From assembly GCA_964490445.1 (NCBI GenBank), contig CAZBDA010000010.1, forward strand, positions 7,830 through 71,829: a DNA stretch of 64,000 bases, read 5' to 3'. Below, one piece after another: positions 4,025-64,000 of this stretch. Source of the stretch: an uncultured Rickettsiales bacterium. Its GTDB lineage: Bacteria > Myxococcota_A > UBA796 > UBA9615. The position numbers and the translations under genes were made by a program. The stretch's first letter is position 1. Each line of letters starts with the position of its first letter. The notes beneath the pieces are model-generated. The model was not told the DNA's origin. It ran no database searches and worked only from the letters and a program-made list of their open reading frames with translations.

Positions 4025-5029
4025 ATGTCATACGACGTTTTCGGTCTCGGAAATGCGCTGGTGGATGCACTGGTGGTAACGGATGATCTCGACCTTGTGC
4101 GGCGCCACGGACTGCAACGGGGCACGATGCATCTCGTGAATGACGAGCGCTGGCGAGCGGTCTACGGCGAGGTCCCCACCGCGGAGGTGCAATTGCATCC
4201 CGGCGGCTCCGGCGCCAATTCTGTGTCCACCGTGGCCCTGCTCGGTGGCAAGAGCACCTTTTGCGGGCTGGTGGGCTCCGACAAGCTCGGTAAGACCTAT
4301 GCCGATCGCCTGGCCCAGATCATGGGTACCCACCACCTGCGCAGCCGCGACGACATCGCGACGGGCAAGTGTCTGAGCATCATCTCCAGTGAGGATGCCG
4401 AGCGCACCATGCTGACGGACCTGGGCGGCGCCATGGAGTTGGGCCCACAGGAACTGCCGGTGGACGCTGTGGAGAAATCGACCTGGCTGCATCTCACCGG
4501 CTACCTGTTTACTGGCGGTCAAATGGGTGAGGCAGCGATGCTGGCACTGGACCGCGCGCTCCGCACCGGCACCCGAATCTCGTTCGATGTCGCCGATGCC
4601 TTCGTGATTCAGCACTTTCGCGACACCGTCGAGAAGGTGATTCGCGACTACGCCGATGTCGTGTTCATGAACGAAGAGGAGGCCAAGCTGCTGGCCGGAA
4701 CCGACGCCGCGGATGCGGTCCACAAGGTCGGAGAATGGGTCAATACAGCGGTCGTCAAGCTCGGCAAGCGAGGCAGCATCATCAAGAAGGGCGAGACCAT
4801 CATCCCCATCGAGGCCGTGAGTGTCCCCACCATTGACACCACGGGTGCCGGAGATGCCTATGCCGGTGGCTTCCTGTATGGACTGGCTCGTGGCTGGCAA
4901 CTCGAGGCCTGTGGACGCCTGGCATCTGCAGTGGCAGGCCTTACCGTGGCCCAGGTCGGAGGGGTTGTGCGCGACCAGGAACTGCTCTGCGAGGTACTCG
5001 CCAGTGTAAAGGCTGCGCCCGCCAGCTGA
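4025..5029 (+). CDS. PfkB-family carbohydrate/nucleoside kinase (adenosine kinase-like)
   Basis: MSYDVFGLGNALVD N-terminus, GGSGANSV, C-terminal DTTGAGDAYAGGFLYGL anion-hole motif. The table ORF starts 57 nt upstream (3968), but the family N-terminus fits the ATG at 4025. Confidence 0.75.
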   Translation: MSYDVFGLGNALVDALVVTDDLDLVRRHGLQRGTMHLVNDERWRAVYGEVPTAEVQLHPGGSGANSVSTVALLGGKSTFCGLVGSDKLGKTYADRLAQIMGTHHLRSRDDIATGKCLSIISSEDAERTMLTDLGGAMELGPQELPVDAVEKSTWLHLTGYLFTGGQMGEAAMLALDRALRTGTRISFDVADAFVIQHFRDTVEKVIRDYADVVFMNEEEAKLLAGTDAADAVHKVGEWVNTAVVKLGKRGSIIKKGETIIPIEAVSVPTIDTTGAGDAYAGGFLYGLARGWQLEACGRLASAVAGLTVAQVGGVVRDQELLCEVLASVKAAPAS

Positions 5030-5179
5030 TTGCCAGTCCCCTGGTTTCGTCGGCAGCAGGTAGGGCTTCCCAGGCGCGGCTCTGCTGGGCTTGGGCGCCG
5101 GTCATGACAGCCTGAAGCAGAAGCACAGTGGTTGGCCGCACAAGCACGGAAAGCGGCTCGCTGCAAAGGCCCCCAAGTA

Positions 5180-5211
5180 GAAACGGTCGGCCCCGTCGGG
5201 CCGACCGTTTC
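5180..5211 (-). terminator. Stem-loop GAAACGGTCGGCC-ccgtc-GGGCCGACCGTTTC (13-bp perfect stem) after mini-lipoprotein A
   Basis: Perfect inverted repeat about 40 nt past the stop, in the convergent gap with the PfkB gene. No clear U-tract. Confidence 0.5.
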
Positions 5212-5250
5212 GAAGTGGTTTCGCAGGCGAACCTGCGAGACGAGACTGCT

Positions 5251-5373
5251 TTACTCAGCGCTGTCGTCGTCGTCGCCGACAGAGGAGTCGTCGTCATCAC
5301 CGCCACAGGCGATCATGGTTACGGTAGTAGCAGCGAACATCAGTCCCAGCAAAATTGCGAGCATCTTCTTCAT
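5251..5373 (-). CDS. Mini acidic lipoprotein, 40 aa (copy A): MKKMLAILLGLMFAATTVTMIACGGDDDDSSVGDDDDSAE
   Basis: Below the 60-aa ORF-table cutoff; found by hand. GGAGA 7 nt upstream of the ATG. Signal peptide ends in a lipobox-like TMIAC. Mature part is about 17 aa of Gly/Asp. Paralogue of 7062..7190, followed by the same two 3' hairpins. Confidence 0.5.
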   Translation of the reverse strand: MKKMLAILLGLMFAATTVTMIACGGDDDDSSVGDDDDSAE

Positions 5374-5399
5374 GACAAATTCTCCTTGCGCAAGTTAAG

Positions 5400-5418
5400 G
5401 GGACCACAGATCGGTCCC
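5400..5418 (-). terminator. Hairpin GGGACC-acagatc-GGTCCC between HExxH gene stop and mini-lipoprotein A
   Basis: 6-bp GC stem inside the 112-nt gap (5374..5485). This is the most AT-rich spacer in the window. Confidence 0.3.
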
Positions 5419-5485
5419 ACCAGCCAAAACAAAGCAACCCCCGTGCCAGATCTCGAGAATTTTCTGGCAATTTTCAGAAAAGGGC

Positions 5486-6881
5486 TTAGCGCCAGCTGGC
5501 GAGCAGCGCGAGAAGCTTGTCGGGATCCTGGCTTCCAGGTGCAAGAATCGCATCAATGCGCTGCCCTCGACGGATCAGGGTGACCCGGGGGAGGCGCTCT
5601 CTGAGTAGCCTGGCGATGTGCCCTGCCTCTTCGGGATCCGACCACTGTGAGCACCAGACCACAATGAGAGAACCGGGCACGGCGCTGCCCGGTTTTGTTC
5701 CCCGGCGCGAGTAAACCGCGACACGATCGCCCTGCCACCCCCCCCCAAGGATGACATTTTTGTCGCGGTAGCTCGAGTCCCAAAGTCCGGCCGAAACGTC
5801 ACCAGCGGCTGGATCTCCGACCCCGGTAAAGACAACTCGGCTGAGTAGTCGGCCCAGGCTGCTGTGGTAAGTCAACTCAAAACCGGGCATGAAAGTGCCC
5901 GGTTTTGAGAAAGCGGCCTTGACTCCGCCTTGTTCCCAGAGTCGTGGGTCGATGACTTCGGCAGTGGTCCTCGGCGGTCTCTCGTACAGGTTCCTGCAGC
6001 CGGGGTCTTCAGGATGGTTGTCCCGGTAGCTGGCGATGAACGTGCTGCCAATGAGGTAGGGGAACAGCAATTGTGCCGCCAGTGCGGGCGGTGTTCCCCT
6101 GGGCAGCATCTGTGCGGCCAGGGAGCCATTGAGGCCGAGGTCGGAGAGTTGGCCTGCGTCGGGACCTCCCTCGCTCAAGACGCCACTACTCTCCAGCAGT
6201 TCGGCGATCTCGGGCGTTGACGCCAGTAGTTCGTCGAGGTTGACACCACCGCTACTCACCCGGTTCATCACGTCGTTGGCGTGACCCTCGAGGACAGCTT
6301 GTATGGCTGCGCCACGGTCCTCGTCCTCGGTGGCATCGGCAAGCCAGTCTTTGAGGTTCCAGACCTGGTCCTGCAAGGCGTGAACGAGCTCATGGCGGAC
6401 GACCGGTGCCTGGACCATGACAGGAATGTCGCGGACCAGAACCAGTGTTGCGGTGGCCGGGTCGTAGTAGCCCCCAGCCTGGCTGCCGTACAATTTCTCG
6501 ATCTCCGTGGCGAGGGACGCCTGCGGCTCGAGCAGCCCGAGGGCGCGCCACGCTGCCTCCATGGGCGCCAGGCGTGACGGGGGCAGTTGCTCGGCGATGG
6601 CTTTGCGGACGTGGGCGCGGGCCTCTGCTCTGCTGGCCAGTTGCGACCGGATGGCTCGCTTTGCTTTCATGCCGCTGAGCTTCTCCACGACCGGCAACTC
6701 CTGCTTTACCAGCGTGTCCGGGCTGAAGCTGCCAGCCGCGGGCTTCGAGAGACCCTGCAGCATGCGCATGAGTTCGTCGACGAGCTCGTCGGACTCCTGC
6801 TGAGCGTATGCCGGGGGTGCCCACAGCAGGAAAAGACACGAGACGGCGAGGAGCAATCGCTGAAGGCTGGCTGTGGGCACT
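5486..6881 (-). CDS. Secreted HExxH zinc-metallopeptidase-like protein (MA-clan-like)
   Basis: GTG at 6881 with GGAG upstream gives the signal peptide VPTASLQRLLLAVSCLFLLWAPPAYAQQ. The ATG at 6988 would add 35 non-signal residues. Motif YYDPATATLVLV...VVRHELVHALQDQ (HExxH) plus a downstream EGHAN acidic segment. C-terminal half has no recognised family. Confidence 0.55.
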
Positions 6882-7061
6882 GGCTGACTCCAGGGGAAGT
6901 GTAGCGTTCGGACGAAGGAGTTGTGCTGCGTGTCGTTCTGTATTAAAAACCCGGCGACGTTTTTTGGGGGGAGTCTTCCCCGGAGCACTTAGTATTGCTG
7001 CTGCTGACCTTGTCTCGCAGCTAAATCAGGGCCCCGCAAAGGCCCGGAATTGGAGTCAGAA

Positions 7062-7190
7062 ATGAAGAAGTCACTTGCTCTTCTCCTAGGATTGCTGTTT
7101 GCCGCTACGACGGTCACCATGGTCGCCTGTGGTGGCGATGATGACGACGACAGTGCCCATCACCACGACGACGACGACAGCGCCGAGTAA
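7062..7190 (+). CDS. Mini acidic lipoprotein, 42 aa (copy B): MKKSLALLLGLLFAATTVTMVACGGDDDDDSAHHHDDDDSAE
   Basis: GGAG 9 nt upstream. Same architecture as copy A with an extra HHH. Followed by a UUCG-tetraloop hairpin (7203..7220) and a terminator hairpin (7231..7258). Confidence 0.5.
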   Translation: MKKSLALLLGLLFAATTVTMVACGGDDDDDSAHHHDDDDSAE

Positions 7191-7230
7191 AGCAGTCGCG
7201 TCTCGCAGGTTCGCCTGCGAAACTATTTCG

Positions 7231-7258
7231 AGACGGCTGGCCCCAGGGTCAGCCGTCT
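7231..7258 (+). terminator. Stem-loop AGACGGCTG-gccccaggg-tCAGCCGTCT after mini-lipoprotein B
   Basis: 9-bp stem. Counterpart of the copy-A hairpin. Confidence 0.45.
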
Positions 7259-7400
7259 TCGCTTGGGTTCAGGAATCGAGCGAAGATAGATTTGCGCTCA
7301 GAGCTGGCCCGATCTATCTCGGGGGCACCCAAATTCACCTGATGAATGCCGCCCGCGCGTGCTAAGTTCAGCGCGATCCGCCCCTGAACTGGGACCTGCC

Positions 7401-10091
7401 ATGTCCGTTGTCCACAGACTCTTGCTGCTCTGTGTCCTCGCCGTTTTCGTGGTGGGCCCTGGCTGTTCCGAGGGCGAGGTGACGGCCATTCCGCAGCCCC
7501 CGCGGGACTGGTCCGCATCGGACTACATCCTCGCGGTCACTGCTTCTGCCGACGCGGTGGCGGCGGGCGTTCCGGTTACGTTCACCGCCACGCTTACGGC
7601 GCCTTCGGGCGACGACATCAGTGATGCCGTCGACTTTTCCTGGGAAATGAGCCCCTCGCTGGGCGTGCTCAACGACGGCAACGGCGTTTATCGGTTTACC
7701 AGCGCTGATAGCTACACCCTGTTCGTATCCGTCGAGGTGATGGGTGCGGTCCTGGTCGATGCCGCTTCGGTGTCGGTCAGCCCGGGGCCGGCGGCTTCCG
7801 TGGACCTGCAACTCTCGGTTCCAGTGGTTGATGCAGGCACGCCCGTGGGGCTGCTCTCGAAGATCTACGATGCCTGGGGCAACCGTCTCGAGGTGCAGGA
7901 CGGCGACGTCGTGTATTCCATTGCCCCGAGCGCGACCCTCAGCGGTGACCAGTTGACGGCAACGGTTGCCGGGTCCTACACCGTCACGTCAACGCTGGCC
8001 GATGGCTCGGCTTTTGACTCCGAGCCCCTCAGCGTGTTGCCTGCCGAGCCCGTTTCACTCGCAATCTCGCTGTCGTCGTATGACGTCGAGCGGGGCCAGG
8101 GCGTGGTGGTCGACACTGTGGTCCTCGATGCCTACGGCAACGACGTCGACTATCCCGTTGCAGTCAGCACCGACCCTGCGACTGGCACCGAGTCCTGGGC
8201 CGACTTCGTGCGCTTCCACGACGAGGGCATCTACATGGTCCACGCCGACATCACCGAGTACGGGCTGCACGCTGAGGATGGCCTGGTGGTGGTGGATTCC
8301 TCGGGCCCCTCGATTCGCGTTACTTATCCTCCGCGCGGTGCCGAGTTGGAGCGCAGCGTCGGTACGCTGGTCACCGTGACCGGCACGGTTTCCGATGCCC
8401 TTACCGGAGTGAGTAGTCTCGCGGTCAACGGGGACCCGGTGAGTCTGCAGGCCGGCGGCACGTTCAGCCACGACATCGTGGCTGAGTTCGGTCTGAACAC
8501 CATCGAGGTGGACGCAGTCGATGGTGACGGCAACTCCTCGGATCTGTTCCAGAGCTTCCTATGGGGTGACTACATCCCGCAAGGACAGGCCAACGAGGGG
8601 GCCGTCCTGGCGCGGCTCAACGACGGTGCAATTGATGCAATCGAGGGTCTGTTCGCGGGCATGCTGGACAGTACGACGCTCCAGAGCGCCATCGCCGGGC
8701 AGAGCCTCGGGAACATCAACGGTACCCCCGTGGTACTCAGCGGGGTCAGCGTCGGCAACCCGAGCATCGACCTGGAGACTTTTGCGGGCAATCCTGATGG
8801 ATACCTGGAGGTGTTTGCTGGCTTTTCTCCAGTCAGCATGCAGGCTTCGGTAACCCGGGTCTCCGTTCCCGGCTTCGGCTGGGCCGACCTGTATGCCGAC
8901 GCCAGCTTCTCGGTCAGCGTCTCGACCTTCGAGGCTATCTCGGACATTGCACTGTCCGTTGATTCCACCAACACGATCCGTGCTGAGGTCCTTGCCGGCA
9001 GCACCCTGGTGAACCTGCAGGGCGTCAGTGTCTCCAACGACAACTTCGACACGTATGTCGATTGGAACTGTGGCTCGTGTGGTTTCTTCAGCCCGGGTGG
9101 CTGCATCTGCCAGGCGGGTGAGGCTGTCGCGAATGCAGCGCTAGGCCTGCTCTCGAGCGTTCTGCAGTTCCTGTTGGACGCGGTGCTCAGTCTTGTCAGT
9201 GCGCTGTTCGGCTTCCTGGAGCCGCTGCTTGAAGGGGTGGTTGCTGATCTCCTCGAGGATGAACTCGGTCCCATCGTCGAGGACGCGCTTGCCGACCTGG
9301 AGATCGTGACTGACATTCCACTCATGGGCGTCGAGATCACCCTGGATGCTCTGCCTCAGGAGATCGAGATCGACGACGACGGCATGTTGATCGCGCTGGA
9401 GTCCGTGGTCACGGCGCCACTGGGGCCCTCGGCGCCGCTGACTCTGGGCGCGCTGTACAACATCGACTCGGTGTGGCCGACCTACCCCACAACGGACGAC
9501 CTGCACCTGAGCCTCGGTGACGGCCTGGTCAACCAGCTCCTGCACTCGGCCTGGCAGGGTGGGGCACTGGACATGTCGATGGATGCCGCCGAGCTGGGTC
9601 TCGACATGAGCCAACTCGACAGCATTCTGCCGCTGAGCCAGTTGCAACTCACGATGCGTCCCTTGCTTCCGCCGGTTGTGGGGCCTGGTCCTTCTGGCCA
9701 GATGGAACTCGCCATCGGCGATCTGCTGATTAACGTAACCGGTGATCCGGGCGGTGTTTCTGGCTTGATGATGCAGTTGGCGGTGACCGTGATCGCTGAC
9801 GCCGACTTCAGCTTCGACGCGAACAACGAGATCCAGTTCGCATTTGCCGATCCCATCCTCTACATGGACTTTGTGCACGCCGACCCCTGGGCGGTAAACG
9901 GAGAGCTTGCCGAGAATGTCATGGAATCGGTGGTCGACCTCCTCGTGCCGAGTCTGATCGATACGCTGGGCGGCCTTGGCGGCTTCGCCATGCCGTCTCT
10001 TGGGGGCTTTGGCATCACCAACTCGACCTTTGCACGCGAAGCGCCGCCAGCCGACTACCTGACTCTCAGCGGCGACGTCGTCCTGCAGTAG
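7401..10091 (+). CDS. Large surface lipoprotein with tandem Ig-like (BIG-type) domains and a C-terminal domain of unknown function
   Basis: Signal peptide MSVVHRLLLLCVLAVFVVGPGC. Repeated beta-rich modules (VPVTFTATLTAPSGDD..., TVTGTVSDALTGVSSLAVNGDPVSL...). C-terminal ~400 aa has a Cys cluster WNCGSCGFFSPGGCICQAGE followed by long amphipathic helices (LGLLSSVLQFLLDAVLSLVSALFGFLEPLLEG). Table ORF starts at 7359; ATG 7401 fits the signal peptide. Confidence 0.6.
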   Translation: MSVVHRLLLLCVLAVFVVGPGCSEGEVTAIPQPPRDWSASDYILAVTASADAVAAGVPVTFTATLTAPSGDDISDAVDFSWEMSPSLGVLNDGNGVYRFTSADSYTLFVSVEVMGAVLVDAASVSVSPGPAASVDLQLSVPVVDAGTPVGLLSKIYDAWGNRLEVQDGDVVYSIAPSATLSGDQLTATVAGSYTVTSTLADGSAFDSEPLSVLPAEPVSLAISLSSYDVERGQGVVVDTVVLDAYGNDVDYPVAVSTDPATGTESWADFVRFHDEGIYMVHADITEYGLHAEDGLVVVDSSGPSIRVTYPPRGAELERSVGTLVTVTGTVSDALTGVSSLAVNGDPVSLQAGGTFSHDIVAEFGLNTIEVDAVDGDGNSSDLFQSFLWGDYIPQGQANEGAVLARLNDGAIDAIEGLFAGMLDSTTLQSAIAGQSLGNINGTPVVLSGVSVGNPSIDLETFAGNPDGYLEVFAGFSPVSMQASVTRVSVPGFGWADLYADASFSVSVSTFEAISDIALSVDSTNTIRAEVLAGSTLVNLQGVSVSNDNFDTYVDWNCGSCGFFSPGGCICQAGEAVANAALGLLSSVLQFLLDAVLSLVSALFGFLEPLLEGVVADLLEDELGPIVEDALADLEIVTDIPLMGVEITLDALPQEIEIDDDGMLIALESVVTAPLGPSAPLTLGALYNIDSVWPTYPTTDDLHLSLGDGLVNQLLHSAWQGGALDMSMDAAELGLDMSQLDSILPLSQLQLTMRPLLPPVVGPGPSGQMELAIGDLLINVTGDPGGVSGLMMQLAVTVIADADFSFDANNEIQFAFADPILYMDFVHADPWAVNGELAENVMESVVDLLVPSLIDTLGGLGGFAMPSLGGFGITNSTFAREAPPADYLTLSGDVVLQ

Positions 10092-23182: not shown

Positions 23183-26100
23183 TTAGGAATCGAGCAGTCG
23201 CAGTAGCAAGCGCAACTCCACCGACCTCTTGCTCAGTTGCTGTAGTTGCTCTGCCGTCAGCGAGTTGGCTACGGAGAATGCAGGGTCGAGTTGCTGTGCA
23301 ACGACCGTACACAAGGCCTGCTCGACCTCCCCCTGAGCTTCTGCGAGCTGACCTGCTTCTGTGAGGCTCTCCAGCGCTCCCCCTGGATCCGAGAGGCGCG
23401 CGCGTGTCACGGCAAGTACGCAAAGAGCCTGCAGGCGTGCCTGGATCTGAGTCTCTGCCGTCAGGACCTCCATTGCAGCAGCCAATTGTGCTGAGGCTTC
23501 TTCGGCTGCTCCCAGCTGCAGGTGCGCAACCGCAAGGCCAACCTGTGTAATTGCGCCTCCGACAGCCCATCCTGAAGCGGCCAGGCCCGCCCTCCCTGCT
23601 TCCAGGTGGCGGATCGCCCTGGGCGCATTGCCAAGGTCCAGGTGGATGCGGCCGAGGATCCCTTGTGTGTGCGCAGATGCCACCGCATCACCCAGCAGCA
23701 GCGCTCGACGAGTACTTTCCTCGACAAGACGCTCTGCCTCGTCATGGCGCCCGAGGATCAGCACCACCTCTGCGAGCAGGCCGAGGCAGGCATAGGTGCT
23801 TCGTGGGTTGTCGAAGGCCTCGTGGATCTCGATAGCTTCGCGTAGGAAGCCCTCGGCTTCCTGAGGCATTCCCAGGTTGCAGTGCAGCACTCCGAGCCTG
23901 CGCAGGCAGTTGCCTTTGCGCCTCTGTAGACCCGAGTCGCTGGCGATCTCGAGTGCATTGCGAGCGTGCTTCTCGGCTTCTTTCATTCGGCCCTGCCACT
24001 CCGCAAAGTGGCTCATGTGCTGGTGTGCCAGCAGTCGATCCAGGGGCCTTCCCTGCGTTCCCACGGTCAACAGTGCGGTGCGGACCTGCCCTTCCGCCTG
24101 GGTGATGTGTCCCATGGGAATGAGCAGGCCTCCTGCGCGGTACAGGGAAGCTCGGGCAAGGAGCAAGGGGCGTAGGGAGTCTCGGGCAAGGGACTCGAGC
24201 AACTCGATGTCGTGTTCGACTTCGGCGAGCATGCCCCCTACTCGTCTCCGCCACAGTGCCCGCGCATAGAGCAGGTCGATCTGAGTTTCTGGGTTCTGTC
24301 GGCCCGAGTGCTCGAGAACCGAGTTCAAGAGCCGGTCATAGACGCCGGGGGGGCCACGTTCTTGCAGGATCGGCTCCAGCACGAGGGCGATGCGCACGGC
24401 GACATCACTTTCCCGCAAGGAGCACTCGCTTTCGATCTTCAGCAGGTTGTCGATCTCGAGTTCCAACAGGCGAGTGGCTTGGAGGCCCCTGCTGCCATCC
24501 CGCGAAGCAGCCAGTCGTTCTGCTTCGACCAGGTAGTAGTCCCTGTGTCGCTGTTTCAGCGCCCCCAGGCTGGTGAGCTCCGCGAGGTGTTCTGATGCGA
24601 AGAGATAGATGCTTTCGAAGAATGTGAAGCGTCGTAGACCCGTGACGCCGGGGACCTCGACACAGCGCAGCAGCGACTTGTCGACAAGGCCCTGGAGCAG
24701 ATCGAGGACCAGCGCGTCGCCGTGCGGAAATTCGATGACGGCCTCGGCCGCTTCAGCAGAAAAGCCGCCGGAGAAGATGGTCGTTTGTGCCAGCACGTGC
24801 TTCTCCTCGACACGGAGAAGCTGCCAGGACCATTCAATGGCACCGCGAAGGGTGGTGGTGCGGTCCTTGTCGCTGGCTCGGTTGGCGCGGAGCAGTTCGA
24901 AACGCTGCGTCAGGCGCTGGCGGAGTTGTTGGGTGGACAACATTCGGATCCGTGCTGCAGCCAACTCGACTGCAAGGGGGATCCGGTCCAGTTCTTTGAC
25001 GACGGTTCGGATGTCGTCCATGCCCTGCTCGTCGGGCTGGAAGTCGTAGCGAAGCTCTCGCGCGCGTTCCATGAACAGTGCGACGGCCGGCTCCTCGTCC
25101 AGGGGCGCCAGTTCGTAGACCCTCTCGCCGGGTACGTTGAGCAGCGCCTGGGAAGTCACCAGGAAGCGGGCACCTGGCGCAGCTTGGAGCCATGCAGCGA
25201 CCACTTCGCCCGAGGACTCCACCAACTGCTCGAAGTTGTCCAGCAGGACGAGGCAGGGCCCTCGGTTGGCCAACTCGTCGCTGATGGCTTCGACGTCGTC
25301 ATCCGCGGTGGTGCTGGCCATCGCGATGCCGAGTCCCGCCGCGACTGCCCTGATCATGCCCTCCTTGTCACGGGCTGCCTGGAGGTCGCAGAACCACGAG
25401 GAGGCCTCGCCCAGTAGTGTAGGTGCCCGCTGTTCGGCGAAGACCCGCGCCAGCAGGGTCTTGCCCATGCCGCCGGGCCCGGTGAGCGTGACGAGTCGGG
25501 CCCCTGTCTCGAACAACTCCTGTAGAGCCGCCAGAGAACGCTCCCGGCCCTGGACAACGCGGCCATCGAGGGTGATGACCGAAAGCTCCTGGGTGGAATC
25601 CCCGCCGGTCGCAAGGCTCGCTGCGGGGGCCTCGGGAACGGCTGGGCTCGGAGCCACGGGCGGCTCCTCGTCGGATGGCGGCTCGAAGCGGTAGCCCTGG
25701 CCATGCACTGTCAGAATGAAGCGAGGCTCTGCCGGGTTGGGCTCGATCTTCTTGCGGAGCCGCCGAACCGCGACATCGACAGCCCGGGTTACGACTCGCC
25801 CGCGGATTCCCCAGACGTCCCGCATCAGTTGATCTCTGGTGATCACGCGCCCGGGGTTGGTGGCCAGGTATCTCAGCAGGCTGGCTTCGTTGGTAGTGAG
25901 GCCTTCGTGCTGCTCTCCCAGGTGCACCTCTTCTCTCGCGAGATCTACCTGGCAGTGGCCCAGGTCCAGCGTTTCCAGGGGAACGCGATTAATGGAGCTG
26001 CCGCCGAGCCGGTCCAGGGCATCGAGCAGCTCGCCACAGGATCCCAGGCGCTCCTGTTCGTTGGTCTTTCCCATCTGCCGCAACAGGTCTACGAGGCCAG

Positions 26101-26908
26101 CGGGTGCGCCCGCTTCTTCCAGCGCTGCTGGACTTGCCTGGCGTGCCCGCACCTCTCGACCCAGCAGCAGGGCCTCTCCGATGCGTGCCAACGAGTAGAT
26201 GTCGTCGTGAACGGTGCTTTGCAGCCTGTCGCTTTTCGTATTGGGAGCCAGGTAGGGCAGGTCCTCTTCAGCGATGGGCTCGGCGAGGGCTCCCAGCCGA
26301 CCAAAATCGAGCAGCTTCACGTCGTCCCGCTCGGTAATGAAGATGACCGACGGCTCCAGCAGACCGTGGCTGAGTCCCATTCCGTGCGCGTGCCCCAGTG
26401 CTTCCGCGAGGGTGCGGAAGATGCGTAGCACCCGGCGTACGCTGAGGATCTCGCTGCTGTCTGCGAGTCGTTCTCTGAGGCTGCGTCCCTGGACCAAATC
26501 GACGACCAGCGCGCACAGCTCGCCGTCTTCTATGAAGTCCAGGACGCGAACGATGTGCGGATGCCGCAGGCGGGCCAGCAGAGCTGCTTCCCGTCGCAAC
26601 TCCTCGCGAACCTCGTCGAGGTGGGTGAGGTGAGGATGGAGCACCTTGACGGCGGCTTGTAGGCCGGAAACGAATCGGTGCGTGCCCCGATAGACAGTGG
26701 TACGGGAGCCCACGCCGAGGACTTCTGAGAGTTCATATCCGCCGATTTGCTGTACCACTGTCAAACAGATAGCACGACATGCTGCCGCGGCACGATCCAC
26801 GGGAGCAGACAGCCGCATCTTGCCTGCGCCAAGTAGAGACGCCCGAATCGCGTGCGACTCGGGCGTCCCGCAAGGGGGGCGTTGCTCCAGCGGAGCTGCT
26901 GCTAGCAA
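23183..26908 (-). CDS. STAND-class regulator: degenerate Ser/Thr kinase (pseudokinase) domain + OmpR/PhoB-type winged-helix DNA-binding domain + NB-ARC P-loop NTPase + TPR repeats
   Basis: Kinase fold markers are present (G-loop GVGSRTT, AVKVL Lys, alphaC Glu, DFG in KLLDFG). The catalytic loop reads HGLLEPSV instead of HRDLKPEN, and APE becomes APN. Winged helix: EASLLRYLATNPGRVITRDQLMRDVWG...RAVDVAVRRLRKKIEPNP...ILTVHGQGYRF. NB-ARC: Walker A LTGPGGMGKT, Walker B LVLLDNFE, sensor-I-like FLVTSQ, GLPLA-like RIPLAVEL. TPR-like helical repeats follow to the C-terminus. Alternative start ATG 26821. Confidence 0.75.
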   Translation of the reverse strand: MLAAAPLEQRPPCGTPESHAIRASLLGAGKMRLSAPVDRAAAACRAICLTVVQQIGGYELSEVLGVGSRTTVYRGTHRFVSGLQAAVKVLHPHLTHLDEVREELRREAALLARLRHPHIVRVLDFIEDGELCALVVDLVQGRSLRERLADSSEILSVRRVLRIFRTLAEALGHAHGMGLSHGLLEPSVIFITERDDVKLLDFGRLGALAEPIAEEDLPYLAPNTKSDRLQSTVHDDIYSLARIGEALLLGREVRARQASPAALEEAGAPAGLVDLLRQMGKTNEQERLGSCGELLDALDRLGGSSINRVPLETLDLGHCQVDLAREEVHLGEQHEGLTTNEASLLRYLATNPGRVITRDQLMRDVWGIRGRVVTRAVDVAVRRLRKKIEPNPAEPRFILTVHGQGYRFEPPSDEEPPVAPSPAVPEAPAASLATGGDSTQELSVITLDGRVVQGRERSLAALQELFETGARLVTLTGPGGMGKTLLARVFAEQRAPTLLGEASSWFCDLQAARDKEGMIRAVAAGLGIAMASTTADDDVEAISDELANRGPCLVLLDNFEQLVESSGEVVAAWLQAAPGARFLVTSQALLNVPGERVYELAPLDEEPAVALFMERARELRYDFQPDEQGMDDIRTVVKELDRIPLAVELAAARIRMLSTQQLRQRLTQRFELLRANRASDKDRTTTLRGAIEWSWQLLRVEEKHVLAQTTIFSGGFSAEAAEAVIEFPHGDALVLDLLQGLVDKSLLRCVEVPGVTGLRRFTFFESIYLFASEHLAELTSLGALKQRHRDYYLVEAERLAASRDGSRGLQATRLLELEIDNLLKIESECSLRESDVAVRIALVLEPILQERGPPGVYDRLLNSVLEHSGRQNPETQIDLLYARALWRRRVGGMLAEVEHDIELLESLARDSLRPLLLARASLYRAGGLLIPMGHITQAEGQVRTALLTVGTQGRPLDRLLAHQHMSHFAEWQGRMKEAEKHARNALEIASDSGLQRRKGNCLRRLGVLHCNLGMPQEAEGFLREAIEIHEAFDNPRSTYACLGLLAEVVLILGRHDEAERLVEESTRRALLLGDAVASAHTQGILGRIHLDLGNAPRAIRHLEAGRAGLAASGWAVGGAITQVGLAVAHLQLGAAEEASAQLAAAMEVLTAETQIQARLQALCVLAVTRARLSDPGGALESLTEAGQLAEAQGEVEQALCTVVAQQLDPAFSVANSLTAEQLQQLSKRSVELRLLLRLLDS

Positions 26909-60135: not shown

Positions 60136-61992
60136 TCAAGGCGCGCAGTTGCCGTTGTCGCTACTGCCGTCGCCTTCCAGCAGCGGGTAGTAGCAGCCCG
60201 GCAGGGGAGGCGAGAACTCCTCGACGCATCCCGAAGGCCATGACACCTGTAGCTCCTCGAGAGCGGTGGCGGCGGCCAGCCCGAAGTGGAGCTTCTTGGT
60301 ACGTCCCGAGTGCACAGAGGTCGAGCCGGCGACCACCTGGGCTACCTGCGCTATCCCGTTCGCGACGATGCGTACTTCGGCGCCGATGGCGTCCCGGTTG
60401 GACCGCGTGCCCTCCAGCAGGAAGCCGATCCAGCTACCTGCACCCTCGCAGCGGTTGCGATACAGATCCGGCTGACCATCGAGGTTCTGCACGATCAGGT
60501 CCATGCAGCCATCGAGGTCATAGTCGAGCACGGTTGCCCCTTCGCTGGTTCCCAGGCGAGTGTCGACCCCCGAGTTCGGCGCCGTAGCGAAACTGCCGCC
60601 CTCGTTGCGCAGCATGACGTTGGCGGCCGGAACCAGTGAACTCGGGTCGAAGGGCTGGATCTGGCTGCCGAAGGCTGTGAACAGGTCGAGCCAGCCGTCG
60701 TTGTCGATGTCGACGAACTCGGTACCCCAGCTGGTGGTCCGATTGCTGGTGTTGCCCGTGCGGGCCGAGCTCGCCAGCGTCACGTCGATGTAGCTTCCAT
60801 CGCCCTGGCTCTGCAGCAGGACCTCACCGCCGCCATCGGCCAGGTTGGTGATGTAGAGGTCCTGGTCGCCGTCCCGGTCGTAGTCGCCCACCGCCGTGCC
60901 CATGGCGAAGATGGCCAGTCCGCAACCGCAGTCGTCGGTGATCCGAGTGAACCGCCAGCCACCGTTGCCGTCGGAACCATCGTTTCGGTACAGCTGGTTT
61001 GGCTGCACCAGGTGCCCTTCGTCGTTGACGACGTACAGATCCGGGTCGCCGTCGTGGTCGACATCGAGCCAACTGGCCATGAAACCCATGCCCGCCGCTG
61101 AGGGCTCCGGCAGATACTGGCTCACATCCGTGAAGGTGCCGTCGCCGTTGTTGTGGAACAGCGAATCCGGGTAGCCCTCGAGATCCTGGCCCTCGTCCTC
61201 GCCTGCCGGAGCCGAAACCTGGTCGGGCCGGTGGTTGACGACCAGCAGATCCACCAGGCCGTCGCCGTCATAGTCGGCCACCGCCGGGGCCATGCTGCGC
61301 ACCCACAACTCGGTGAGGCCGGCGAACTCGCTGACATCAGTGAACTGGCCGTCGTCGTTGCGAAGCAGCTTGTTGGGATTGTCGCCAGTGACGAACAGGT
61401 CCGGGTCGCCGTCGTTGTCGTAGTCGGCAAAGGTTGCGCCGATATCGACATTGGAGGGGCCCGAGTTGATGTCGCCGAGAAATCCGAGCGGCAGACCCCG
61501 GTCCTCGGCCTCTTCGGTGAACACTCCGTGGCCCTGGTTGACGTACATGCGGTTCTGCACTGCCCCCATCACCATGATGTTGCCGATCACGAACAGGTCG
61601 TCGAGTCCGTCGCCGTTGATGTCACCCACAGCGACGCCGTTGCCGCCCAGGCCTACTTCCTCCCGATCGGTCTCGAACAGTCCTGCGGATTGGGTCATCC
61701 ACTCGAAGCGTCCCAGTGGGGGACTACTCGGGTCGACGTTCGGCACGCAGCCGCCGATCGCATTGGAACATGCCGGGGCTCCGTCGCAGTCCGGATCGTT
61801 GCAGTCGAACAGACCGTCGAGATCGTTGTCGGCGGCATCTGCGCACTCGCCGGGGTCGTCTCCTTCGAAGGCCAGCTCAGTGCAGCCCTGCAGCGCCAGC
61901 GCAGTGCACAGCAGCAGCAGCGGGAGTGGCAGCGCCGGTTGCCTGTTCAGGGCCAATGCCCGGCGCTCGCAGTGGGGGTAGAAGAAGTCCAC
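60136..61992 (-). CDS. CRTAC1-like lipoprotein: MopE-like metal-binding motif + FG-GAP repeats + ASPIC/UnbV domain
   Basis: Lipobox LALQGC. CADAADNDLDGLFDCNDPDCDG. Repeated GDINGDGLDDLF, ADYDNDGDPDLF, ADYDGDGLVDLL, LDVDHDGDPDLY. C-terminal IGAEVRIVANGIAQVAQVVAGSTSVHSG is UnbV/ASPIC-like. Confidence 0.65.
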   Translation of the reverse strand: MDFFYPHCERRALALNRQPALPLPLLLLCTALALQGCTELAFEGDDPGECADAADNDLDGLFDCNDPDCDGAPACSNAIGGCVPNVDPSSPPLGRFEWMTQSAGLFETDREEVGLGGNGVAVGDINGDGLDDLFVIGNIMVMGAVQNRMYVNQGHGVFTEEAEDRGLPLGFLGDINSGPSNVDIGATFADYDNDGDPDLFVTGDNPNKLLRNDDGQFTDVSEFAGLTELWVRSMAPAVADYDGDGLVDLLVVNHRPDQVSAPAGEDEGQDLEGYPDSLFHNNGDGTFTDVSQYLPEPSAAGMGFMASWLDVDHDGDPDLYVVNDEGHLVQPNQLYRNDGSDGNGGWRFTRITDDCGCGLAIFAMGTAVGDYDRDGDQDLYITNLADGGGEVLLQSQGDGSYIDVTLASSARTGNTSNRTTSWGTEFVDIDNDGWLDLFTAFGSQIQPFDPSSLVPAANVMLRNEGGSFATAPNSGVDTRLGTSEGATVLDYDLDGCMDLIVQNLDGQPDLYRNRCEGAGSWIGFLLEGTRSNRDAIGAEVRIVANGIAQVAQVVAGSTSVHSGRTKKLHFGLAAATALEELQVSWPSGCVEEFSPPLPGCYYPLLEGDGSSDNGNCAP

Positions 61993-62076: not shown

Positions 62077-64000
62077 CTAGCGGAAGACGTACTCCGCGTA
62101 GCCATCAGCGTTGTTGATCCCTGGCGCCGTGGCCTGATCGCTGTCCATACCATCGTAGTACGACGATCCGCCGCCGGCGGGTGCATTCGAGATGCTGCCG
62201 GCGCCGCCTCCGTACCAGCCGCCTCCGCCACCTCCCTCGTCGTTGTCCTGGACGTTGTTGCCGCCGGCTCCGAACGAGCCATTTGCGGAAGAGGTGTTCG
62301 TGGTTGTTCCGCCTGCGGTCTGGCTGCCTCCAAAGCCTCGACCGCTGGGACTTCCAGAAGTACTTCCATCGCCGCCGTTGAGGCCACCGCCAGCTCCGCC
62401 AGGGGAATTACAGCTCGCGTTTCCGCAGCCGCCTCCACCTCCGGCCACCAGGATCCTGGAGTTCAGGTCTCCCAGAGTGGTGCGAAGGTCAGTGCCTCCT
62501 CCCCCGCCGGAGCCGCCGCGTGTGCCACGGCCTCCTCCATTGAAGCCGCCGCTCTGGGTGTTGGGAGGACCCTGATCTTCTACTCCGCCCGCATCGCCCT
62601 GGCCGCCGACGTACAGGTGCAACGTAGTCTCCGGGGGGAAGGTCCTGGCGCCGCTGGCGCGGCCTCCGAGGCCGCCATTGGTGTTGATTCCGGTACCGCC
62701 GGCTGCACCGTGCAGTGTGAACAGGTACTCAGCGGTGCTGTTGACCGTCGAAAAGCTGTGCTCGCTGCCGGTGTGTTCCACGCGGAATGGACTGGCCACG
62801 GACTGGTAGGTCCAGCCTCCACCCGTCATGTCACAGAACACCTGGAAGGCGTTATTGGTGTCGCCGTCGTCGTCAGTGTCGATCCAATAGGTTCCGTCTC
62901 CCGAACCGGGGAACTGCGCCAGGATTGTGCCGCAGGTGATGCCGGCATTGGCCTGGCTGATGCCGTCGCGACAGTTGGCAAAGCAGCTGGGGTCGAGGTC
63001 GTTGCCATCGGTACCGCCGCTGAGCTCTGCCGCCGAGTCGTGTCCGTCGCCGGCCTGGTCGAAGTCGCGGGCTCCGCTGCAGTCCAGGTCGATGCCGTCG
63101 TACCAGATCTCCACTGCGCCGGGATTGATGGCCGTGTCGTTGTCGTTGCAGTCGCCGGAATTGTTGATGAAGCCGGTGGTTGCGCTGCAGGCTGCGATGG
63201 AGTTGCCCAGGTCGCCGAAGCCGTCGCCGTCGCTATCGGCGTAGAAAGTGGTGGCATTGATCGCGCCCTCGTCGACGGAGCTGTCACAGTCGTTGTCTTC
63301 GCCGTCGCAGACTTCCAGTGCGCCGGGGTTCTCGGTGGGGTCGGCGCCATCGCAGTCGTTGCCGTTGGCGCTGTAGCCGGTTGGTTGGAAGCAGGCTGCC
63401 TGGGGGGTGCCGGGGTCTCCGTAGCCATCGCCGTCGCCGTCGAGGAAGAAGGTGGTCGAGACACCCTCGTCGACCTGGCCGTTGCAGTCGTTGTCGGCGT
63501 CGTCGCAGACCTCGGTGCCGCCGGGGAAGGCGGTCGCGTGGAGGGCGTGGCACTGCCGTGCGTGGAAGATGTAGCCGGGCGGCGGCGTGCAGGCCAGCTG
63601 ACTGCCCACCGGGCTGCCGAAGCCGTCGCCGTCGAAGTCGGCGAACCAGTTGGTGGGTGCCGCGCTGCCTTCGTCGACGCTGCCGTCGCAGTTGTTGTCG
63701 GCTTCATCACAGATCTCGGGTGCGCCCGGGTAGGCACTTGGATTCAGGTCGTCGCAGTCATCGTCGGTTACGACGTAGCCCAGCGGCTGGCTGCAGGCCG
63801 GCAGGATCGGCTGCGTGCGCCCGTAGCCGTCGCCGTCGGCATCGAAGTACCAGTTGGTCTCGCCGGTGGCACCGCTCTCGTCGACCTGCCCGTCGCAGTC
63901 ATTGTCGAGCCCGTCGCAGGTCTCAAGCGCAGCAGTGTTGAGGGCTGAGTTGTTGTCGTCGCAGTCCTCGCAGGCGGCGAGACCGTCGCCGTCGACGTCC
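62077..64000 (-). CDS. Secreted protein with tandem MopE-like 'putative metal-binding motif' repeats and Gly-rich C-terminal region; 5' end lies beyond window
   Basis: The minus-strand frame stays open from 64000 down past the table start at 63609. At least five ~55-aa repeats of [CDxxDNDCDGxVDEG...FYxDxDGDGYG...C]. C-terminus GGGGGTDL...GGGGGCGNASC. Confidence 0.55.
   Translation of the reverse strand, partial: DVDGDGLAACEDCDDNNSALNTAALETCDGLDNDCDGQVDESGATGETNWYFDADGDGYGRTQPILPACSQPLGYVVTDDDCDDLNPSAYPGAPEICDEADNNCDGSVDEGSAAPTNWFADFDGDGFGSPVGSQLACTPPPGYIFHARQCHALHATAFPGGTEVCDDADNDCNGQVDEGVSTTFFLDGDGDGYGDPGTPQAACFQPTGYSANGNDCDGADPTENPGALEVCDGEDNDCDSSVDEGAINATTFYADSDGDGFGDLGNSIAACSATTGFINNSGDCNDNDTAINPGAVEIWYDGIDLDCSGARDFDQAGDGHDSAAELSGGTDGNDLDPSCFANCRDGISQANAGITCGTILAQFPGSGDGTYWIDTDDDGDTNNAFQVFCDMTGGGWTYQSVASPFRVEHTGSEHSFSTVNSTAEYLFTLHGAAGGTGINTNGGLGGRASGARTFPPETTLHLYVGGQGDAGGVEDQGPPNTQSGGFNGGGRGTRGGSGGGGGTDLRTTLGDLNSRILVAGGGGGCGNASCNSPGGAGGGLNGGDGSTSGSPSGRGFGGSQTAGGTTTNTSSANGSFGAGGNNVQDNDEGGGGGGWYGGGAGSISNAPAGGGSSYYDGMDSDQATAPGINNADGYAEYVFR

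Follow-up and report, generated by a model that had tools for sequence, protein, structure and literature searches.

Short genes bracketing a secreted zincin gene belong to an undescribed family of acidic Asp4-Ser-Ala peptides with a lipoprotein-type signal in marine bacteria and viruses

In contig CAZBDA010000010.1 of an uncultured bacterium, two very short open reading frames (ORFs) lie in opposite orientation on either side of a gene for a secreted HExxH zincin. What do these inverted paralogues, here called minis A and B, encode, and is their role tied to the peptidase between them? The DNA analyzed is a window of 64 kb, and coordinates are window positions unless a locus is named. A first-pass annotation had described two short ORFs with good ribosome-binding sites, a signal peptide and a TM(I/V)AC lipobox, and we found both as described:

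5251-5373, minus strand: mini gene A, the A-type paralogue, encoding 40 amino acids (aa), MKKMLAILLGLMFAATTVTMIACGGDDDDSSVGDDDDSAE
7062-7190, plus strand: mini gene B, the His-bearing paralogue, encoding 42 aa, MKKSLALLLGLLFAATTVTMVACGGDDDDDSAHHHDDDDSAE

A ribosome-binding site of the GGAG type precedes each ORF. Both products start with an MKK n-region followed by 19 uncharged residues, and the same pattern of charged n-region and hydrophobic core recurs in all 21 of the 21 aligned family members and in the wider list. The predicted lipobox is TMIA-C in copy A and TMVA-C in copy B, with Cys23 in both; Ala at position −1 and Ile or Val at −2 are canonical, and Met at −3 is permitted, although atypical. 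The acidic tails are GGDDDDSSVGDDDDSAE in copy A and GGDDDDDSAHHHDDDDSAE in copy B. The predicted mature peptides (~17 to 19 residues) consist of Cys, a two-residue linker and two DDDDS(A/S) units, reading CGG-DDDDSS-VG-DDDDSA-E in A and CGG-DDDDDSA-HHH-DDDDSA-E in B. The HHH that the first-pass annotation had ascribed to copy B is therefore present, between its Asp blocks.

The way in which the copies differ indicates what selection acts on. Over the first 75 coding nucleotides (nt), A and B are 75% identical, and 12 of the 19 differences fall at third codon positions. The ratio of nonsynonymous to synonymous differences per site (pN/pS), calculated from 25 gap-free aligned codons, is 0.00 to 0.2, with pS reaching 0.4 to 0.8; for copy A, it is 0.02 to 0.11 against the orthologues and the paralogue. 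Orthologues of copy B were found in three loci (P0001/L006, where L006 is a 502-bp contig carrying it, L091_B and L093_B), and the A and B copies of L091 are separated by 7 synonymous and 0 nonsynonymous differences. Codons for the conserved Ser include both AGC and TCC. These ratios and the mixed Ser codons show that selection acts on the protein sequence of the minis. The earlier view that the coding regions diverged mainly at synonymous positions holds, but the accompanying statement that copy A uses AT-richer codons is refuted by the G+C content at third codon positions (68% in A and 65% in B). The same two mini proteins were called as genes on 11 marine metagenome contigs. The double motif (two occurrences of D3+[ST][AGS]) was detected twice in the window, at A and B, and nowhere else there, and a six-frame scan of ~950 kb of control DNA returned 0. 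On these comparisons, the two ORFs are real, selected paralogous coding genes with a predicted lipoprotein-type signal.

How widespread are such genes? A word-indexed protein search from copy B alone retrieved one homologue, and the family surfaced only via profiles, with 19 proteins in an exhaustive HMMER profile search and 246 in a family-profile search. At least 118 distinct mature peptides remained after trimming, and they follow the plan C-x(2-5)-[DDDDSA-x(0-4)]2-5. The linker after Cys has 2 to 5 residues, the +2 residue is usually Pro, Ser or Gly, and the Asp block begins at +3 to +8. Each peptide carries 2 to 5 units spaced by 0 to 4 residues, and the final unit ends 0 to 2 residues from the C terminus (2 to 4 residues follow the last Asp run in 108 of the 118). 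Asp runs are 3 to 7 residues long and exactly Asp4 in 204 of 263 repeats; the residue after the run is Ser in 252 and Thr in 5, and the position after Ser is occupied by Ala (225), Ser (19), Gly (15) or Thr (3), and never by Ile, Leu, Val or Met. The 118 mature peptides have a median length of 20 aa and a median net charge of −9. Mature mini peptides contain no Lys or Arg, whereas His is found in ~30% of peptides and a C-terminal Met in 33 of 112. Seven members, namely window copy B (winB), P0001, P0132, P0146, P0213, P0216 and P0228, have HxH or Hx3H between Asp blocks. Most lipoboxes in the family are classical (LAGC, LTGC, SVGC or FTGC), and the family as a whole shows the pattern [LVITMF][AGVTI][GAS]C.

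No Pfam or NCBIfam model matched the minis at cut-off, and weak NCBIfam matches covered lipoprotein N termini alone. PHROGs had no match for the phage minis described below, their neighbors or the zincin; the sole PHROG match, a weak one (E = 0.0039), was that of copy B to an unannotated family. Literature searches for "DDDDSA" and "DUF8575" returned no match. As judged from sequence, the minis are an undescribed family of ~20-residue, strongly acidic peptides with a lipoprotein-type signal, present in marine bacteria and viruses.

Like the small lipoproteins Lpp (Braun lipoprotein) and EcnA/EcnB (entericidins, with precursors of 41 to 48 aa), which are processed by Lgt and LspA, the minis have a tiny precursor with an n-region, an h-region and a lipobox Cys, and they share with Lpp and the entericidins a short, highly structured message with strong 3′ hairpins and the occurrence of paralogous pairs. 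Unlike Lpp and the entericidins, to which they have no sequence similarity, the minis are built of an Asp4-Ser-Ala repeat of charge ~−9 rather than a helix or coiled coil, are under predicted sigma-54 control and have phage-borne homologues. Small lipoproteins, sigma-54 promoters and zincins are each familiar. The novelty lies in a predicted lipoprotein with a mature part made solely of Asp4-Ser-Ala repeats, together with the conserved, predicted sigma-54 control, the concerted evolution of an inverted pair and the presence in phages.

Two further observations concern variants of the motif. In one subclade (for example L179, positions 4331-4453 and 5001-5123), the mature part starts C-(S/N/D/H)-H, with His at position 3; these peptides would form an amino-terminal Cu/Ni-binding (ATCUN)-like site only if the N-terminal amine is free, that is, not N-acylated. 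In L181 (9969-10123), an ORF with a type-I-like signal peptide continues into DDDDSASDDDDSAE and runs on into a larger protein, so that in this clade the Asp motif is also found at the N terminus of ordinary secreted proteins.

Outside bacteria, the 61-aa, four-repeat protein P0219 is encoded on contigs of 118 to 138 kb that carry gp32, a UvsX/RecA-like recombinase, DnaB, ribonucleotide reductase and a family-A DNA polymerase. With degenerate DNA patterns for two such repeats, we retrieved ~60 IMG/VR contigs, ~30 of which encode lipoprotein precursors of 47 to 71 aa at a fixed site between gp32 and UvsX. These precursors are of the types MIARTNR...FTGCP..., MFKRVN...GGCPSAE... and MLKTNR...IGCQTS.... 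Elsewhere in phages, the Asp motif follows transmembrane (TM) anchors in proteins of ~55 to 80 aa or stands at the C-terminal end of lipoproteins of ~355 aa. We suggest that the Asp4-Ser-Ala unit is a portable module, mostly predicted to face the extracytoplasmic side. A viral scan with the family alignment matched the signal-peptide pattern alone and confirmed nothing, and cultured phages yielded no mini homologue, with the nearest UvsX being ~32% identical.

The phage genomes have several recurrent features. In one uncultured marine lineage (L176-L178 and ~27 IMG/VR loci), the conserved gene order is gp32, an Hc1-like protein, a 165-aa ORF, a 75-aa ORF, the mini, a 51-aa ORF and UvsX. This lineage has a GC content of 42 to 50%, contigs of up to 138 kb (257 kb for L220), a tubulin/FtsZ-like gene and a MazG-like gene. 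The ~355-aa phage lipoproteins (IMG/VR L191, L226, L236, L217 and L231) contain a vWA-like segment, IDIVWLIDRSGSM, and in L217 and L231 the C-terminal tails end in ...GDDDDSAGDDDDSAGS. TM-anchored phage proteins of 78 to 86 aa carry ADDDDSAGDDDDSAK (L182, L194, L205, L219 and L237).

How might expression of the bacterial copies be controlled? The region upstream of mini A contains two elements:

5434-5448, minus strand: predicted sigma-54 (−24/−12) promoter, TGGCACGGGGGTTGC, ending 61 nt upstream of the mini A ATG
5381-5418, minus strand: mini A 5′ untranslated region, with the hairpin GGGACC...GGTCCC (5400-5418) and the block CTTGCGCAAGGAGA (5381-5394)

The sequence CTGGCACGGGGGTTGCT at 5434-5448 of the minus strand is a perfect TGGCAC-N5-TTGC and the only exact match in the window, where 0.16 are expected. 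Tested against the consensus of GG at −24 and GC at −12, spaced as GG-N10-GC, the element agrees at every point. In each of L091, L093, L179, L181, L241 and L243, the identical element precedes the A-type mini by an equal distance, and no other copy of it occurs within those six loci. In contrast, B-type copies have a different upstream sequence and no sigma-54 box. Within the leader, the hairpin GGGACC...GGTCCC was found in the close clade, and the block CTTGCGCAAGGAGA forms a palindrome, TTGCGCAA, that abuts the Shine-Dalgarno sequence and is kept in 6 of 7 aligned lineages. We conjecture that a protein or an RNA may bind this palindrome and so control translation. Equivalents of the palindrome are present in L091, L093, L179, L181 and L243.

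Copy A had earlier been placed immediately downstream of the peptidase gene, on the same strand and after a small hairpin. The position and the leader hairpin stand, but copy A is more than a gene downstream of the zincin, because it has a conserved promoter of its own. We describe copy A as a separate unit composed of a predicted sigma-54 promoter, a leader of ~50 nt, the ORF, a small hairpin and a terminator-like hairpin. A-type supply would then be switched on by an enhancer-binding protein via sigma-54. A separate conserved block, GGGGCAC-N5-TTCACCTG ... GCGCGTGCTAAGTT, lies at 7324-7380 of the plus strand, upstream of the gene for an 896-aa protein (ATG at 7401), and is common to L006, L091, L093 and L243. 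It resembles either a sigma-54 box with a degenerate −12 (TTCA for TTGC) or another promoter type.

The 3′ ends of the two copies present a different picture:

5221-5238, minus strand: hairpin 1 of copy A, TCGCAGG-UUCG-CCUGCGA
7203-7220, plus strand: hairpin 1 of copy B, with the same sequence as in copy A
5180-5211, minus strand: hairpin 2 of copy A, terminator-like, its 14-bp G+C-rich stem flanked by an A-tract and, at the opposite side, a T-tract
7230-7260, plus strand: hairpin 2 of copy B, terminator-like, its stem differing from that of A by compensatory changes

A 24-nt block, GTCTCGCAGGTTCGCCTGCGAAAC, follows both stop codons in identical form (2 occurrences in 64 kb, 0 expected), and the 46 nt after the stop are 91% identical between A and B, in agreement with the first-pass annotation, which had given the ~55 nt after the stop as nearly identical. 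In each copy, folding of this region gives two hairpins, one of 7 bp with a UUCG loop and one of 14 bp that is G+C-rich (z = −5.1 and −5.8 against shuffled sequences). The annotation had called the pair a UUCG hairpin plus a terminator. Both fold, but a consensus terminator scan called neither copy of hairpin 2, because the T-run is weak (the tail is just UUUCUACUU or UCUUCGCUU). The covariance analysis that had been proposed as a check revealed double changes in 9 of 24 base pairs in the close clade, such as a G-C pair replaced by A-U in hairpin 1 of L091_A and TCGGCC/GGCCGA versus CTGGCC/GGTCAG in hairpin 2. The loop of hairpin 1 is UUCG, UACG or UUUG. In the distant loci L179 and L181, the nucleotides are unrelated, yet a small post-stop hairpin and a strong second hairpin are found again. 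Covarying pairs and the same layout with unrelated sequence therefore show selection on the 3′ structure. In the simplest case, its role would be that of a stabilizing hairpin plus a terminator, and hairpin 2 of copy A, on which mini A and pfkB converge, could terminate transcription in both directions. A search of Rfam 15 gave, within positions 4800-7600, two chance-level matches only (E = 3.7 and 5).

Does such selection explain why the two 3′ regions are nearly identical? Within a genome, the A and B copies have peculiarities of coding and 3′ sequence in common that are missing from their orthologues: near-identical peptides in L091, a UACG hairpin in L093, and both hairpins in the a and b copies of L179. 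Despite this sharing, the 5′ regions remain A-type or B-type. Because paralogues within a genome are closer to each other than to their orthologues, the near-identity of the A and B 3′ regions is, on the alignments, at least partly recent gene conversion. The idea of selection on an RNA element thus survives for the structure, through the compensatory changes and the retained layout, but draws less from the near-identity itself.

Two other explanations for parts of the locus were rejected. A transcription-attenuation leader peptide is at odds with the convergent pfkB gene, which leaves no operon after A, and with the conserved secretion signal encoded by the ORF; folding of the mini 3′ regions predicted no alternative anti-terminator pairing. 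A dispersed repeat does not account for the 3′ similarity, given that the block is confined to the two sites. An invertible segment was also considered for the 2-kb inverted repeat, but the orientation is identical in all loci seen and no recombinase lies nearby.

We now turn to the genes around the minis, two of which recur with them:

5486-6880, minus strand: secreted zincin-like metallopeptidase (DUF8575 / PF26686), 464 aa, HELVH at 6380-6394
7401-10091, plus strand: 896-aa putative lipoprotein with a Glucodextran_B/PKD/Ig-like domain, on the B side next to GntR in every syntenic locus examined

The zincin has a type I signal peptide with the cleavage site AYA-QQ. Residues H163, E164, H167, E198 and G199 are invariant in 42 orthologues, and H200 is nearly so (EGHA motif); R162, directly before HExxH, is conserved, and several Arg residues are invariant. 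The AlphaFold 2 (AF2) model has a predicted local distance difference test (pLDDT) score of 83. Its best fold match in PDB is 3cmn (an uncharacterized "putative hydrolase"), followed by anthrax lethal factor and IrrE/PprI with weak scores, and searching PDB by sequence with this profile of the zincin yielded chance matches alone. Scores for NF038145 (Hvo_1808 family surface protein; 93.5 bits) and Pfam DUF6782 (17.5 bits) are below the respective cut-offs of 200 and 27, and the precomputed PF26686 (DUF8575) matches of the orthologues are weak or faint wherever graded. Farther away in the window, we noted a 1,240-aa fusion of a Ser/Thr protein kinase with an OmpR-type DNA-binding domain and AfsR-like TPR (23183-26908, minus strand), which, together with a MopE-motif protein (62077-63609) and an FG-GAP/ASPIC protein (60136-61992), gives the contig a Myxococcota-like flavor. 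With the 64% GC and the predicted use of sigma-54, this gene content hints at a Myxococcota-like marine diderm, which we offer as a guess.

The syntenic order is GntR, the ~900-aa Glucodextran_B-domain protein, mini B, zincin, mini A and, after mini A, a convergent pfkB. The same synteny was found at zincin identities of 75% (L091), 70% (L093) and 44% (L181). Four loci (the window, L091, L093 and L181) have the mini/zincin/mini arrangement, and L241 has the zincin and an A copy only. Among the 32 zincin orthologues whose contigs measure at least 5 kb, 17 or more have a mini on the same contig, as read from equal contig sizes, which is indirect for a shared contig and no evidence of adjacency. 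Loci of more distant zincin relatives served as a negative control: minis were found in none of 160 distant DUF8575 loci. Profile scans of genome and metagenome contigs with the zincin alignment gave matches of which those listed were 25 to 38% identical, mostly from Gemmatimonadota or soil, and without minis. All co-occurrences of zincin and minis may be one vertically inherited locus.

What, then, might the peptides do? Our preferred reading, which we put forward tentatively and at somewhat less than even confidence, is that the minis are lipid-tethered polyanions whose production is regulated and which bind cations or metals in the cell envelope. Processing by Lgt and LspA would yield a lipid-anchored peptide of net charge ~−9, tethered to a membrane of the cell envelope. 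The product is probably made in quantity, as its short, hairpin-protected message would suggest. The Asp4 blocks would serve as ligands for Ca2+/Mg2+ or trace metals, and variants with His or Met, copy B included, would add coordination of the Zn/Ni/Cu type. Metal could thereby be buffered or delivered, or the local surface charge set, for proteins of the envelope, the neighboring secreted zincin among them, and phages carrying their own minis would impose the same envelope change on infected cells.

Several known proteins offer comparisons for this reading. Metal-binding stretches are known from the ZnuA loop, the ZinT N terminus and ZraP, which is under sigma-54/ZraR control. Like these, the minis are short, disordered acidic stretches that may hold His and would face the periplasm; one mini paralogue carries HHH, HxH or Hx3H, a zinc enzyme is a neighbor, and the predicted promoter is of the sigma-54 type, as for zraP. 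Unlike these, a mini is free-standing, predicted to be lipid-anchored and ~20 residues long, and most members lack His. Asp runs also act as low-affinity, high-capacity binders of Ca or minerals in the poly-Asp of osteopontin, in Asprich and in the calsequestrin tail, a likeness that we offer as analogy only, since those proteins are unrelated, unlipidated and much longer. Metal binding by the minis is plausible, and the enrichment of His and C-terminal Met gives it circumstantial support. Other circumstantial points are the HxH or Hx3H placed exactly between blocks in a recurrent paralogue type (here copy B, beside the 896-aa gene), the subclade with His at mature position 3, the frequent zinc-enzyme neighbor and the reported centering of sigma-54 regulons on the cell exterior (PMC3162934).

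A number of observations weigh against this reading. No enhancer-binding protein, Sigma54_activat domain or rpoN was found among the window ORFs scanned. The invariant Ser and the small Ala are explained by neither charge nor chelation, and they suggest a recognition or modification site. As the mature peptide has no Lys or Arg, standard (trypsin-based) proteomics is blind to it, and the lack of reports is therefore uninformative. Minis also occur without the zincin: in L179/L180 and L243/L244, the chromosomal position is unchanged and two or three minis are kept, with no zincin remnant and just 0.5 to 0.8 kb of noncoding DNA between the divergent mini pair; in L245, one mini of the His type follows an Rnf/Nqr operon; and the phage mini loci have no zincin. 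Conversely, L094 encodes a 66%-identical zincin and no minis. This mutual dispensability argues against a dedicated metal-delivery pair. The zincin is a frequent but optional companion of the minis, and the constant element appears to be the sigma-54-driven A-type gene beside pfkB. The functional link to the HExxH peptidase that the first-pass annotation had hinted at, and its suggestion to look for D-rich minis beside HExxH genes elsewhere, thus fared unevenly: the adjacency recurs in several lineages, including the four mini/zincin/mini loci, but it is not obligatory, and the two are decoupled in both directions.

Two of these loci have further features. L243 (4050-5421) and L244 contain an A-type, a B-type and a His-rich mini (CPAADDDDDEHNHDEHDDDDSAM), the third just upstream of an 868-aa gene, and the His-type appears to be a distinct third paralogue class. 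The L094 zincin is flanked by two Cu-binding_MopE "putative metal-binding motif" proteins, an ECF sigma factor and a Flp-type pilin.

The conserved Ser and Ala raise a first alternative, that the minis are carriers of a modification. Here, DDDDSA would be a sequon whose Ser is O-glycosylated, phosphorylated or esterified, and the resulting lipid-anchored glyco- or phosphopeptide would decorate the envelope and be exploited or remodeled by phages. The near-invariance of Ser after Asp runs (252 of 263), with Thr (5) as the sole common replacement, the restriction of the next residue to Ala, Ser, Gly or Thr, and the portability of the motif, which also follows TM anchors and ends larger phage lipoproteins, are all consistent with this view. 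The O-glycosylation sequon of Bacteroidota is D-(S/T)-(A/I/L/V/M/T), which D-S-A formally fits. However, that sequon needs one Asp and four are conserved here, and the third position is never Ile, Leu, Val or Met in 263 repeats and is Ser or Gly, which are outside the sequon, 34 times. Moreover, no glycosyltransferase or kinase is among the conserved neighbors in the loci examined, and there is no sign of a Bacteroidota origin (64% GC, MopE-motif and FG-GAP proteins, the Ser/Thr-kinase fusion, and distant zincin relatives mostly from Gemmatimonadota). We consider a modification carrier unlikely.

The idea of the first-pass annotation, that the minis are partners of the peptidase, would make them substrates, trans-acting propeptide-like inhibitors or membrane docking sites of the DUF8575 zincin. 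The mini/zincin/mini arrangement is kept from 100% to 44% zincin identity, a mini is on the contig of at least 17 of the 32 orthologues (on the indirect evidence given above), and the zincin has several invariant Arg residues, one just before HExxH. We nevertheless regard this role as improbable: minis persist in the same synteny block without a zincin remnant in L179/L180 and L243/L244 and without a zincin in L245 and ~30 phage loci, while L094 and the 160 distant DUF8575 loci have the peptidase without minis. In addition, the co-occurring cases may represent the single inherited locus, and copy A has its own predicted promoter.

Alternatively, the minis could be a surface-charge or exclusion device, in which the acidic stretch acts as an export signal and forms a negative brush on cells or vesicles that alters adsorption of phages, cationic peptides or particles, with superinfection exclusion as the phage benefit. 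Phage copies do lie among early and replication genes, and small phage lipoproteins such as T5 Llp and Cor are a precedent for exclusion factors. Together with the o-spanins (Rz1), these resemble the minis as phage genes for lipoprotein precursors of 40 to 70 aa that act on the host envelope. Unlike Llp, Cor and Rz1, to which they have no similarity, phage minis are placed between gp32 and UvsX and not within a lysis cassette, and their mature part is poly-Asp and not folded or Pro-rich. For the export step, the precedent comes from Bacteroidota, where acidic residues near Cys+1 drive surface exposure of lipoproteins (PMC5080379; PMC6222051). As in that signal, the minis have an acidic cluster a few positions from Cys (PMC5080379). 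However, the signal is C-X-K-(D/E)2-X at the head of a folded cargo protein, with Lys or Gln required and positions +2 to +6 critical (PMC5080379), and neither the window copies nor the family conform to it: the minis have no Lys or Gln between Cys and the Asp block, which begins at +3 to +8, carry no folded cargo, and add one or more further Asp blocks and the invariant Ser-Ala. The second Asp block and the Ser-Ala residues are left unexplained, and the export pathway is known in Bacteroidota alone. Such a device is therefore, in our view, quite improbable.

Finally, it is very unlikely that the functional product is the RNA, a short sigma-54-driven regulatory (or dual-function) RNA with stable hairpins and an incidental or secondary ORF, because, although the locus has a predicted sigma-54 promoter, a predicted transcript of ~250 nt and two conserved hairpins, and although sigma-54-driven small RNAs such as Qrr exist, purifying selection on the protein is strong with synonymous change saturating, the peptide motif is kept across unrelated nucleotide sequences (including those of phages of 42 to 50% GC), hairpin sequences are not conserved between distant lineages, and there is no Rfam match.

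Returning to tethered cation-binding polyanions, a broader version of that reading would make the minis a widespread marine class of ~20-residue polyanions, deployed through sigma-54 for control of envelope cations, trace metals or charge, and captured by phages for exclusion or metal supply. We find this extension possible, though doubtful. If it is true, Asp4-Ser-Ala would be a new short functional motif, either a metal site or a modification site. The unit is a simple synthetic target for metal-binding or modification assays (CGGDDDDSSVGDDDDSAE and CGGDDDDDSAHHHDDDDSAE). The locus is also a clean natural case of concerted evolution between inverted paralogues with different promoters. Genes so short are usually discarded, and this family nonetheless has more than 100 distinct members with purifying selection, a predicted sigma-54 switch and uptake by phages. 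Should the peptides prove to buffer or present metals, or to set surface charge, then current models of marine bacterial surfaces and of phage-host interactions would be lacking an envelope component that is both cheap and abundant.

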